Source: Cirrosporium novae-zelandiae
Taxonomy: Eukaryota
Length of the DNA stretch: 64,000 nucleotides
Assembly: GCA_026023565.1 (NCBI GenBank)
Contig: JAPETS010000005.1
Location: 62,001-126,000, forward strand
Direction: 5' to 3'
The stretch's first letter is position 1, and each line of letters starts with the position of its first letter. Shown here piece by piece: positions 7,116 to 12,697 of this stretch. The notes beneath the pieces are model-generated. The model saw only the letters and a list, made by a program, of their open reading frames with translations. It was not told the origin of the DNA and made no database searches. The position numbers were made by a program, and so were the translations under genes.

Positions 7116-9053
7116 CTACTGGATAAAATATCCCTGGATCAACTCATTCAGCCTCCTACCCCCGCTCGCAAAATCGACCCCGCTCGCTCCCCTAACCTGA
7201 TACCGCACCCTCTGGTTGTCGTTGAAATTGTCCATCCGGGCGCTACACTTAAATACCCAGGTCCTGCAGTTAGCCTCCTGGAACGCCTCGCTCGCCTTAG
7301 CCTCGTCGTTCTCCTTCAGGCTCGTCAGCTCTTCGGCGTTCATGCCCATGATCAGGCGTCCCACGCTATCGAAACACGACAGCCAGAGCTGACCCGTGTG
7401 GTCTGACACGTTGACCGACATCATGTACCGGTACTGCGGATGAGGGTGGGTAACGCTGCAGCTCTCGCAGCGCCACTGACCTGGGTCCAGCTCAATGACT
7501 TTCTTGTTGCAGGTTTCTGAGAGACAGGCTGGGTAAGTAACGGAATCCTGTTTCACATAGATGATTGTGGCTTTGAGGGTGAAGTAGTCTGTTTTTTCTT
7601 CGGTCATTCCCAGGTTCTCTTCTCGGACTTGGGCTATGGTTTTTAGGGGGTCCAGGCGGCCTGTTGCAGCTGAAGTGGAGTCTGCGGTCGAGGCGTACGA
7701 AGTGAAGGTTTCCGAGTGCCCGGCGGCGTCGTACCAACCTTTAAGTTTGTGGGCCTCGTCGATGTCCGGATCGACTGTCATAGTGCCGCTGGATAGGAGA
7801 CTCAGGCTGCGACCGTTGAAATCGGACACCCTGACGCCCTTGAATGCGATTATCGAATTGATGGGAACCTCAAATTGCGTGGCCGTGTTGCCCCAGATTG
7901 TTAACCGTACCGAAAAGCCTGTGTTGTCGACGAGGGTGAGTTCACGCTTGTCATATGGTTTGGAGGTTGCTTTGGACACAATTTGGGAGACCTCGTCCAC
8001 GGATTGCAGGACTCCGATTATGTCTATGGTGCTGTCTTTTTCGATTGTTTGGAGATCCCCGATTGGAGTGAAGTTGAAGCGGACTTGGGGTATGCCATCT
8101 TGCTCTTCGGCCTACGAATAGTTAATGATCAAATGCACCGCACCAATAAAACGATAGAAAAAATGGTATACCTTTTCGACGATAGTATCTCGTCCAAAAT
8201 TTATTTCATAGTCATTGTTGATGGTGCTAAACTGCTTTTTGGCAAACTGCACTTGGCAAGGGCTTGATATGTAATAGACGCCTCCCTCTTGAAACACATC
8301 GTACAGCGAATCGCATTGGTCGTTGAAGCCTGTGGCTCTGATTTCACCCGTCTCATCAAGTAGGTTCACATTGAACAATTTTCCTTCTCCGTTTCTGTTA
8401 TGCCAGGTCTTGATATCTGATTTAAATACGCATCGTGCTTTAATTGTCCATTTATGAGCATAGGGCGATATCCCTTCGATGGGATATATCGTTCCATGAC
8501 CTCCAGCAGAGGAATTATTTGGACGTGAAGGTAGGGACTGTCCCGTACTTTGCTGCTGTTTTATTGGCTGCTGAGGTTTGTTCCCATAAAATCCGTTGGC
8601 AGAAATAGAAGTGGTCTGTTGCTTATTGTCATCTTCATGCTTTACTTCCAGGCCTTGGGGATCTCCCAGCTTCTCGGACTCCCCTAGTTCTTCTAGAACT
8701 TCAAGGTCAAGGACAATGATGATCCTAAAGAGTTAGTTATGCCTTGAACATTTTTTAGTCTTGACGTACTTCTTTCCCTTAACGGCGTTTGCTTGGAACT
8801 GCTTAATGCGAACAAAACATCCCTTCCGTAATTTTCCTTGATGCATGATATGATTTGCTTGTGTTGCAAGCATGCTCTGAACATAGTTCTGGATGTCACT
8901 GAATACCACTCTATATCTTTCTGGGTTTCCTCCTTGGCCAGCTAAAGGTTTGATCTGGAGACATTGCAGAATAGGCTGAGCAACAATATTCCCTCCATCG
9001 AATATGGCTGCGAGGGACCCTTGTGAAACATGGGATGCTGGATCGGAGGCCAT
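7116..9053 (-). CDS. RFA1: Replication protein A 70 kDa subunit (RPA1); 3 exons
   Basis: RYRVVFSDIQNYVQSMLATQ (N-terminal OB fold), YPIEGISPYAHKWTIKARC, LLDETGEIRATGFN, YPAC...CNKKV...WRCESC zinc motif, VSDHTGQLWLSCF. Confidence 0.97.
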
Positions 9054-9574: not shown

Positions 9575-10854
9575 ATGTCTGAACCAGAAGTCTCCACCAA
9601 ATCCCCCGAGAATGATGCCCTGGAAGCTGTTCCGATAGCCACAGCAACATCATCTACCCAAGACGAAGCTCCAGCTACCAGCGAGAATCCCCAAACTTTG
9701 GAGGTAGGAAGCACCAAGATTACCTTTTACCAAAATACATTTATAGATTCTGACAGCAATTCAGGAACCCAGTGAAACTGAACCACAGACTTGTACGTCC
9801 ATTATTATTCTCTCAACAGTCCTGAAACAACGCTGATGACGAATCCACATATCCAGCTGTTGGAACAATACCTAGTGGTGTATGGCACTACCCATCCCTA
9901 AGAAAAAGCTGTATATTAGAATGTATATAATTAACTATTTCCCAGGAATTAACTCAACTCGGTGGGATCGATGTATGTTCCTCTAATTCTTTAATTCAAT
10001 TCCCCAAACTCACTAGTCTCCGCTTTCTAGGTCTACATATCCAAACCCGCCGATTATCCTCACTCACCCTCCAAATTTCTCCTTTTTCTTACCGGTGGCA
10101 CCGGTCTCTCCTCAACCAACCAACTCCAAGCAGACGTATACGCCAAGAATGGCTTTGTGGTTGTCATGCCCGACCTATTTGCTGGCGACCCTGCCCCCAA
10201 TACCTTCGACCCCAACGCCCCAGATCCAAATGGAGCCTCTGCCTCCCTCCTCGAAAGGATAAAGCTCCATGCAGCCGAAACCGCCAAATCATTCCTTATT
10301 GATATGTGGCTCGCACGACACACTCCGGAGAAAGTTCTTCCCATCATCTACACCGTCCTCCAAGCCGCTAAGGACGAATTCGCTGACGCTGTCGCAAATG
10401 GCGACGGTGTTTATGCCGTTGGCTATTCGTTCGGTGGGAAATATGTGATCCTTCTTGCAGCTGAAGGCAAGCAAGGCGACGAGGAAGAAGGCAAAAAAGC
10501 CCCAGAAATCAAAGCGGGCGCCGTAGCGCATGCCACAGCTGCGTCAAGAGAAGACATGGAGGGAATCAAGGCGCCTCTGACATTCGTTTGTGTGGGGCCA
10601 GAGGACCCTCTATTCCCTCCTGAGGTGGTCGATGTAGGACGGACGTACATGAAGATGACGGGGATACCATATGAGATTGAGATGTTCGAAAGAGTGCCGC
10701 ATGGTATGTCACCAGCTTCATTTCCATTCCATTCACAGCTACCCAATTAACCCGAATAGGTTTCGCAATTCTGGGCGGGTACACAGATCCTGCAATCAAG
10801 GAAGCACAGTCAAAGGCATTTGAGCAAATGCTCAAGTGGCTTCAATCGCATTGA
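9575..10854 (+). CDS. Dienelactone hydrolase family protein with three micro-exons (about 9765-9792, 9857-9880, 9946-9972)
   Basis: Spliced product reads GELTQLGGIDVYISKPADYPHSPSKFLLFLTGGTG...QLQADVYAKNGFVVVMPDLFAGDP...GYSFGGKY...VPHGFAI. Confidence 0.85.
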
Positions 10855-11520
10855 GGTCGGTCCTTCAAAAACGAACATGAAATGGCTTAACCAATGCCCC
10901 TGATGTGCGTAAAGAAAGGAACAACAATGTTTCTATGTCTGTCCAGGGATTATTAAACTAGGTTTCATTTCATTGTTGCTCAACACAAGGTTGCAATATC
11001 CAATGTTTATCATGGAGTTTAGGATTTGGAATTATTATTTTTCGCTCGCGGCGGGGGACTTAAGCAAGATATGTTAGATAAAAGAGAAGAAAAAAAATAT
11101 AGATACCCAACACAAAATGAAAGCCTTTTGCGTTTTGAAAAAAAAAATCGAATCTGTAGTTGTGGGAGTAATAATTAATTGGTATTGGTAATAGGAGTAG
11201 GGAGATAATCCTTTGCACTTGATTAGAATAATCTGCAGGAGGTGATCTGAAGGGTTTAGATGCAAAGGTAGATGGCACAGCACAACAGGCCCTTTGGTCC
11301 GGTAGTTTTATATGGAACTACTAAAATCGAATCGCAGAATGAACAAATCAAAAGATTAATAATTATAAGAAAACAGGCTTATAAAAACATACACAGCACA
11401 ATAAAAGCCCCCAGCATTGTCGTATTCATTTGTTTGTAAAAGAAAAAGAAAAAAACTACAACGCCTTCGCTCTAGGGTTTCCCCATTTGTTACCATTTTG
11501 TAGACTATTTCCCTGATTTT

Positions 11521-11557
11521 GTTTTCACTGTTTTCACCGTTTTCACTGTTTTCACCA
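11521..11557 (+). repeat. 9-bp tandem repeat GTTTTCACY, about 4 copies
   Basis: gttttcact gttttcacc gttttcact gttttcacc, read directly from the sequence. Confidence 0.8.
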
Positions 11558-11913: not shown

Positions 11914-12697
11914 CTACGCGGTGGTTTCTTGTGCCGACACCTTCTCGATTTCAATCTTGGGGAGCGGCGCCGATGTGCCACCGAGGTCTGTGGATCGAGC
12001 CTTGGGGTTCTTGGTGTAGTAATTTGAGATAGCGGATTTGATAGCATCTTCAGCGAGCATGGAGCAGTGGACTGGTCGGTATGGCGTTTTAGTATGTGGA
12101 TTGTGACAAAGAATGGATAGATGAAGTATGATGGCATAGGTAGTATGGAGGGAGAAAACATACGCTTCACGGGCGGCAAACACAGTTCTTTTGCAATCTC
12201 CGTATTCCGAATTTTCCCCGCATCCTCCAACGTCATACCTCTAACAAGTTCAGTCAGGTAGCTTGAGCTTGCAATGGCACTTCCACATCCAAAGGTTTTA
12301 AATTTCACATCGCTGATAGTGTTACTGTTGGGATCGACTCGGATTTGAAGTTTCATGACGTCGCCGCAGGCGGGTGCGCCCACTAGGCCTGTTCCGACGT
12401 CTGTGTCGGTTTTGGACATGGAACCGACATTTCGGGGGTTGCTGTAGTGGTCAAGCAGTAAGAGGACGTTAGCCGGGCATTTTAATAATGGTATTATGAT
12501 AGTTGGGGTTGAGTTGGTGGAGAAATAGGGCAATATCAAAGTTCGGAGGATGACATATCTTTTTCGTGATAATTTCTCCTTCCATTTACGGCCACGGCAG
12601 CAACGGGTTGTGCTTTTGAAATGAGAGATGGTCGTGCAGCTGAGGAAATGATTCTTCCCGTCGAGCGAGGAACTACTCCAAGGACACGTTTGAACAT
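11914..12697 (-). CDS. ISU1: Mitochondrial iron-sulfur cluster scaffold IscU/Isu1; exons 12697-12559, 12457-12164, 12071-11914
   Basis: Basic presequence MFKRVLGVVPRSTGR..., then YHEKVLDHYSNPRNVG, GAPACGDVM, FKTFGCGSAIASSS, LPPVKLHCSMLAEDAIK. Confidence 0.97.
12458..12558 (-). other. Non-canonical AT-AC intron (ATATGT ... GCTAAC ... TTAC), intron 1 of ISU1
   Basis: Removing it gives GAA AAA G|TG CTT GAC CAC TAC (EKVLDHY); the 101-nt interval contains no AG on the coding strand. Confidence 0.8.

Follow-up and report, generated by a model that had tools for sequence, protein, structure and literature searches.

Very probably, the first intron of the ISU1 gene of Cirrosporium novae-zelandiae is a genuine and ancient spliceosomal intron that begins with AT, ends with AC and is removed by the major spliceosome, while the GT-AG intron placed there by the public gene model is an artefact. 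We observe the sequence anatomy of the intron, boundaries fixed by protein homology, conservation across species and a recurrent pattern of mis-annotation in public proteins; from these features, splicing in C. novae-zelandiae would join positions 12559 and 12457. ISU1 is a core and usually essential gene of Fe-S assembly for which the public models of many fungi are in error.

Anatomy of ISU1 and its first intron

The gene lies on the minus strand of the window, by which we mean the whole 64-kb stretch of DNA analysed here, and is an IscU/Isu1 scaffold gene with a NifU_N domain and three ligand cysteines. Its parts are as follows.

12697-12559, minus strand: exon 1, coding part; ATG at 12697, 46 codons ending ...NYHEK, then G, the first base of a Val codon
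12558-12458, minus strand: intron 1; 101 nt, AT-AC termini, phase 1; excision joins G to TG (Val)
12558-12553, minus strand: intron 1 5′ splice site ATATGT, in exon context AAG/ATATGT; the U2-type GTATGT with A at +1
12472-12468, minus strand: intron 1 branch-site consensus CTAAC, inside GGCTAACG; branch A predicted at 12469, 11 nt before the final base of the intron
12461-12458, minus strand: intron 1 3′ splice site TTAC; YAC instead of YAG, with intron tail CTCTTAC
12457-12164, minus strand: exon 2; TG, 97 codons (LDHYSNPRNVG...GAPACGD...FGCGSA...LPPVK), then C
12163-12072, minus strand: canonical intron 2 (GTATGT...CAG) of 92 nt; interrupts the Leu codon of PPVK-L-HCSML in phase 1
12071-11914, minus strand: exon 3; TC, HCSMLAEDAIKSAISNYYTKNPKARSTDLGGTSAPLPKIEIEKVSAQETTA and the stop TAG (11916-11914); HCSMLAEDA...

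A first-pass annotation, made from the letters of the sequence, had placed a 101-nt AT-AC intron at 12458..12558, and reading of the minus strand together with the translations confirmed both the coordinates and every sequence element given for it. Exon 1 ends AAT TAT CAC GAA AAA G and encodes a 46-residue mitochondrial-type presequence that is 100% identical to the first 46 residues of P0124, a public protein discussed below. Exon 2 starts TG CTT GAC CAC TAC and, from the L of LDHY onward, matches Pfam NifU_N over profile positions 7-102 (E = 2 × 10^-39). The AT-AC-spliced product is 196 aa long and contains all three cluster-ligand cysteine motifs (GAPACGD, FGCGSA and LHCSML); the best match among solved structures is yeast Isu1 (PDB 5t0v, E = 4.5 × 10^-54). 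The same annotation had described the interval as free of AG and not a multiple of three in length, with read-through disrupting the motif. Counts and translation bear this out: the intron contains no AG dinucleotide, is 63% pyrimidine and is not divisible by three, and reading through it reaches a stop after ...YHEKDMSSSEL.

Choice of junction and the public gene model

To place the junction, we enumerated all GT-AG, GC-AG and AT-AC pairs around the interval with both exon frames kept open. AT (12558) with AC (12458) was the only pair to give YHEK-V-LDHY, in agreement with the earlier claim that excision restores the conserved YHEKVLDHY, and the placement is unique because any shift of the junction alters the mRNA. 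These boundaries were set by protein homology and were not fitted to splice signals; chance therefore falls far short of accounting for NTATGT right at the 5′ boundary and CTAAC 11 nt before the 3′ one, the odds being, by rough estimate, about 2 × 4^-5 for the former and about 30 × 4^-5 for a CTAAC near the 3′ boundary.

The first-pass annotation had further held that GT-AG splicing cannot keep the motif. One in-frame, stop-free GT-AG alternative exists but deletes VLDHYS from the protein, so that the claim stands.

12554-12442, minus strand: rival GT-AG intron (GTCATC...CACTACAG); 113 nt, donor GT at 12554/12553, acceptor AG at 12443/12442; the sole in-frame, stop-free GT/GC-AG option

Splicing this intron yields YHEK-DI-NPRNVG, and it is this product that stands in the public record. 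A database query with exon 1 returned a single match, P0124 (192 aa), and no other protein of the same species; P0124 is named by NCBI as a protein from a metagenome-assembled genome (MAG) of Cirrosporium novae-zelandiae (Xylobotryomycetes) and is, letter for letter, the computed product of the rival splice. Its match to Pfam NifU_N begins only at profile position 12 (157.2 bits), with positions 1-11 missing, whereas in P0015 and P0107, homologues with a proper junction, the match starts at position 1 (172.6 and 175.9 bits, respectively). Aligned to yeast Isu1 (5t0v), P0124 shows a 4-residue gap at the junction. A profile HMM built from 153 homologues gave the AT-AC product 325.9 bits, 28 more than the 298.0 bits of the GT-AG product; as these homologues were picked by motif, this comparison is partly circular, while the Pfam comparison is not. 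Within the same motif-selected set of 153, the V, H and Y of the motif are invariant (153/153 each) and D is present in 151.

It is nevertheless conceivable that the public annotation is correct and that the cell splices from GTCATC at 12554 to CACTACAG ending at 12442, making a 192-aa Isu1 without VLDHYS. This option has the merits of being the only in-frame, stop-free GT/GC-AG choice, of having a branch-like CTAAC at a workable 27 nt from its AG and of being the model on record, but we consider it very unlikely. It drops both the residues conserved throughout the motif-selected homologues and the first 11 positions of NifU_N; GTCATC is a poor donor, while ATATGT, which starts four bases further upstream, lines up with the consensus. 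Moreover, the rival acceptor AG falls inside the codons TAC AGC, for which three related fungal loci (L001, L004 and L006, described below) read TAC TCC or TAC TCT and so lack the AG; a GT/GC-AG option keeping both YHEK and LDHY is likewise missing from each of them. The public GT-AG model of this gene is very probably an artefact of gene predictors that permit only GT/GC-AG introns.

The intron in other fungi

The first-pass annotation had pointed to ISU1 orthologues as a place to inspect the same intron. We scanned metagenome contigs with exon 2, kept 80 loci and sorted them by the sequence just upstream of the match. Most were prokaryote-type (74), with a start codon directly at M.YS.K[VL]; three were uninterrupted and eukaryote-type (L002, L003 and L005), and three were intron-bearing fungal genomic loci. 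All three of the latter carry an AT...CTAAC...AC intron at a position and phase identical to those of intron 1 in the window:

L001 intron 1: 105 nt; 5′ site ATAAGT; GCTAAC, 12 nt to the 3′ end; 3′ junction TCAC/TG
L004 intron 1: 128 nt; 5′ site ATAAGT; ACTAAC, 11 nt to the 3′ end; 3′ junction AAAC/TC
L006 intron 1: 90 nt; 5′ site ATACGT; GCTAAC, 21 nt to the 3′ end; 3′ junction GCAC/TT

An alignment of the four introns (window, L001, L004 and L006) revealed no conserved element besides the splice signals, and since their bodies cannot be aligned beyond these signals, they represent independent, diverged lineages rather than copies. The recurrence of AT...CTAAC...AC at these loci rules out a double assembly error in the window. 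More broadly, a pair of non-canonical bases within a single intron might in theory stem from errors of sequencing or assembly, or the gene could be a decaying pseudogene, but such an account is extremely improbable: both bases recur at the three independent genomic loci, 25 gene models from other species indicate the same intron ends (see below), and all three exons in the window are intact and 92-100% like functional homologues.

Locus L006 offers four in-frame GT/GC-AG options, all of which lose YHEK. Queried with its exon 3, the database returned relatives that were no more than 78% identical along the entire query, or 100% identical along 67% of its length, and no identical protein; its C-terminus is nearest to those of the Pezizaceae Terfezia, Kalaharituber and Tirmania. 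This likeness to Pezizaceae places the AT-AC intron in Pezizomycetes, an early branch of Pezizomycotina. Separately, L006 has an extra intron of about 75 nt (approximately 1091-1165) that splits the ligand motif as GAPAC/GD; the window, L001 and L004 do not have it.

The three uninterrupted eukaryote-type loci are contigs of 1.0-1.4 kb that have neither intron and read YHEKVLDHY; none of them shows a poly(A) end, and an RNA origin of these contigs is assumed. As an aside on the prokaryote-type loci, 5 of the 74 (L030, L053, L058, L076 and L077) have Leu for Val before [LI]DH[YF], reading M.YS.KL-, and Val at this position is thus not universal outside eukaryotes.

Public gene models from other fungi carry traces of the same intron. 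We sorted the best 120 homologues longer than 170 aa by their junction and found 90 with a normal YHxKV-LDHY, six with bacterial-type N-termini, one without the motif and 23 fungal proteins that were mis-modelled here; a third search (96 proteins) added two models from Terfezia, for a total of 25 mis-modelled junctions. The splice-site nucleotides of these 25 models were deduced from their amino acids and not read directly. In every one of them (25/25), the residue before LDHY is Leu, which is encoded by C plus TN and therefore indicates an intron ending in C; were the last intron base G, Val would be expected. The residue preceding that Leu is Ala in 11 models, Ser in five, Leu in four, Pro in two, Thr in two and Val in one, each of which has a codon ending in a pyrimidine plus A, so that the deduced end reads YAC. 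Among the models that read on past YHEK, the next residue is Asp in 12 of 12, that is, G plus AY, which indicates an intron starting with A, since a GT start would give Gly; the residue after this Asp is Lys in nine (ATAAR) and Met, Glu and Asn in one each. In some models, the stretch read through is too short for a whole intron, and these probably also hold predicted internal introns.

This signature is found in Dothideomycetes (Alternaria, Didymella, Curvularia, Saccharata and others), Lecanoromycetes (Xylographa, and Physcia, which we take to belong to this class), Candelariomycetes (Pycnora), Geoglossomycetes (Geoglossum and, presumably, Trichoglossum) and Pezizomycetes (Terfezia). With Cirrosporium novae-zelandiae, whose name adds Xylobotryomycetes, the intron spans at least six classes of Pezizomycotina.

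Two pairs of near-identical proteins allow a mis-modelled copy to be compared with an intron-free one. In P0114 (Neocucurbitaria sp.), the 11 residues DKLPSAQLPPL replace a single Val of P0107, the other 195 positions being identical, and P0107 is an uninterrupted open reading frame on a 1.3-kb contig. P0116 (Alternaria alternata) differs from P0109 by the same kind of junction replacement plus one substitution (193/195 identical). In both pairs, therefore, the stretch has been precisely removed in the intron-free copy, and, assuming that the contigs of P0107 and P0109 are RNA-derived, this is the best available sign that it is precisely excised in mature messages.

The AT-AC state is not universal, as 90 of the best 120 homologues have normal junctions, including all Leotiomycetes among the listed matches. 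Such junctions may stem from a GT-AG intron, from a gene without the intron or from AT-AC models built with transcript guidance; they suggest that the AT-AC state can be lost.

The errors left in public ISU1 proteins take the form of read-through insertions and false N-termini, and in Cirrosporium novae-zelandiae of a net loss of four residues from the conserved N-terminal motif. Such mis-annotation contaminates protein databases, alignments and structure predictions, and a predictor rule that permits AT-AC at the ISU1 junction would mend the models. In several public or assembled models, namely P0011 (Diploschistes diacapsis), P0012 and P0014, intron 2 has been read through too, for example as PPVK-RELFSLEERM-HCSML in P0011; ISU1 models in lichen-fungus assemblies are thus wrong at both introns.

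Spliceosome, persistence and origin of the intron

Apart from its first base, the 5′ site of intron 1 has a U2-type consensus, AAG/ATATGT in the window and ATAAGT, ATAAGT and ATACGT in L001, L004 and L006, and intron 2 of the same gene begins GTATGT where intron 1 begins ATATGT. The intron 1 sites read ATATGTCA and GGCTAACG, compared with ATATCCTT and TCCTTAAC for U12-type introns. The U12-type 5′ site ATATCCTT matches the window three times, against 2.85 matches expected, and not once within ISU1. These results uphold the earlier reading of the signals (the donor and the CTAAC branch site) as U2-type rather than U12-type. A scan of the 64-kb window against Rfam at the gathering threshold gave no matches, a result that is uninformative for the rest of the genome.

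The alternative that intron 1 is a U12-type AT-AC intron, removed by a minor spliceosome, draws on its AT-AC termini and on its branch site, which lies 11 nt from the 3′ end. A branch site about 11 nt from the 3′ end is a spacing also typical of U12-type introns. However, intron 2, whose position is common to the window, L001, L004 and L006, is canonical in L001 and L004 (GTGAGT...CTGAT...TAG) and has an equally short branch-to-3′-end spacing of 11-12 nt, which shows short spacing to be ordinary in these fungi. Against a U12-type intron also stand the 5′ site, which is ATATGTCA in the window and ATAAGT, ATAAGT and ATACGT in the relatives but never ATATCCTT, and the branch region, which is GGCTAAC and not TCCTTAAC. 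The first-pass annotation had placed the gene in a group generally thought to lack the minor spliceosome, and this agrees with published surveys, which report convincing minor introns or snRNAs for neither Ascomycota nor Basidiomycota (PMC10639083). A minor-spliceosome intron at this site is hardly credible given this evidence. We infer, from the sequence signals and from the published absence of a minor spliceosome in Dikarya, that intron 1 is most likely removed by the U2-dependent spliceosome.

U2-type (type II) AT-AC introns are a known if rare class, exemplified by those of vertebrate SCN4A/SCN5A and numbering 24 among approximately 610,000 introns of five genomes (Sheth et al. 2006, PMC1557818), and those of metazoans have a strong /ATAAGT consensus (PMC5029451). 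The ISU1 intron resembles the SCN4A/SCN5A type in having AT-AC termini on a U2-type 5′ site (/ATAAGT there, ATATGT here and ATAAGT in L001 and L004) and borders conserved over long evolutionary distances. It differs in being fungal and short (90-128 nt), in having CTAAC as its branch site, in interrupting an essential Fe-S scaffold gene and in occurring across at least six classes of Pezizomycotina, a lineage reported to be without the minor spliceosome. With U12-type AT-AC introns, it shares the terminal dinucleotides and the short branch-to-3′-end distance but neither ATATCCTT nor TCCTTAAC, and the machinery for such introns is reported as absent from Ascomycota (PMC10639083).

Among fungi, the closest comparison is with Saccharomyces cerevisiae, a major-spliceosome-only fungus, in which an engineered /AT-AC/ intron (Parker and Siliciano 1993) and a nested AT-AC intron of RPL30 (Gould et al. 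2016, PMC5029451) have been described. The RPL30 junctions make up roughly 1-2% of transcripts, their 5′ site is atypical and the cell does not need what they encode (PMC5029451), whereas in ISU1 the AT-AC junction alone leads to a normal protein, from a 5′ site close to the consensus. Among filamentous fungi, Fusarium graminearum has an AT-AC site among its Sanger-confirmed non-canonical sites; the gene may or may not be ISU1 (PMC3577648). AT-AC introns make up 0.019% of annotated fungal introns (PMC7072748), and fungal xylanase genes have been hypothesised to contain AT-AC II introns (PMC1557818). These recorded filamentous-fungal cases fall in the same rare class and the same subphylum, and ISU1 is not named for any of them in the portions of these papers available. 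Our literature search, confined to the main text of papers outside subscription journals, found surveys of fungal AT-AC introns but no relevant report joining AT-AC introns with Isu1/IscU or U12-type introns with ISCU. Within that scope, U2-type AT-AC introns are known, but the ISU1 case and its Pezizomycotina-wide conservation are not in print.

As a mechanism, we propose that U1 and U6 would pair with ATATGT after exon AAG and U2 with CTAAC, with a pyrimidine preceding the last two bases of the intron, departures from the fungal U2-type signals being confined to its two end positions, G to A at the first and G to C at the last. The first and last G of an intron normally make a non-Watson-Crick contact, G1/G-1, in the second catalytic step, and an A-C pair can substitute for it (Parker and Siliciano 1993, cited in PMC5029451). 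In intron 1, an A1/C-1 contact would take the place of G1/G-1, and the joining of G to TG would then supply the Val of YHEK-V-LDHY and hence the 196-aa Isu1. With its position, phase and termini constant across Pezizomycotina, the intron is very probably ancient. Return to GT-AG requires two simultaneous changes, since GT-AC or AT-AG would each cripple an essential gene, and long stasis would therefore need no function of the termini. Such a two-mutation trap is the likely reason for the persistence of the intron.

The first-pass annotation had instead proposed that inefficient splicing acts as a throttle on Fe-S assembly, possibly responsive to iron, and this proposal is not supported. In this alternative, the AT-AC intron is real but deliberately inefficient, and its retention, or use of the GT-AG option, limits Isu1. 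Retention would introduce a premature stop, and the AT-AC termini, apparently kept in at least six classes, could reflect selection. Engineered yeast AT-AC introns do splice (Parker and Siliciano 1993, cited in PMC5029451). Their splicing is reportedly less efficient. Nonetheless, the four intron bodies share nothing beyond splice signals, and no conserved sensor or structure is visible in them; the valley of two mutations between AT-AC and GT-AG accounts for conservation without function; and the normal-looking junctions of 90 of the best 120 homologues indicate that the AT-AC state may be dispensable. We regard an iron throttle as unlikely, the two-mutation trap explaining the conservation more simply, and intron 1 as a real, ancient U2-type AT-AC intron that is probably spliced constitutively.

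How the intron came by its termini is a matter for more tentative reading. It could be a molecular fossil, an ancestral U12-type AT-AC intron, at a very old intron site, captured by the major spliceosome when Dikarya lost the minor one; its termini would have been frozen while its internal signals turned U2-type, and it would have been kept since before the radiation of Pezizomycotina. The exon 1/2 boundary of human ISCU also lies just before VVDHY. We give this origin only an outside chance, but, if true, it predicts a U12-type intron at the exact ISU1 site in fungi with a minor spliceosome (for example, Rhizophagus, Basidiobolus and chytrids), and it makes the hypothesis of U12-to-U2 conversion testable at a single locus.

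Whatever its origin, an apparently natural, constitutive and deeply conserved AT-AC intron in a lineage whose sole spliceosome is reportedly the major one offers a test system for the A1/C-1 contact in vivo, and its persistence in at least six classes of Pezizomycotina illustrates how lock-in of a compensated double splice-site change can come about.

The surroundings of ISU1 have no bearing on the intron. About 360 nt downstream of the ISU1 stop, at 11520-11556, AT-rich intergenic sequence holds a tandem repeat with four copies of the 9-nt unit TGTTTTCAC. Beyond it, an open frame at 10031-10750 (plus strand) matches the dienelactone hydrolase family, and one at 7116-8732 (minus strand) matches the domains of the large subunit of replication protein A (Rep_fac-A_C, REPA_OB_2 and OB-fold) and is RPA1-like, an ordinary fungal housekeeping context.
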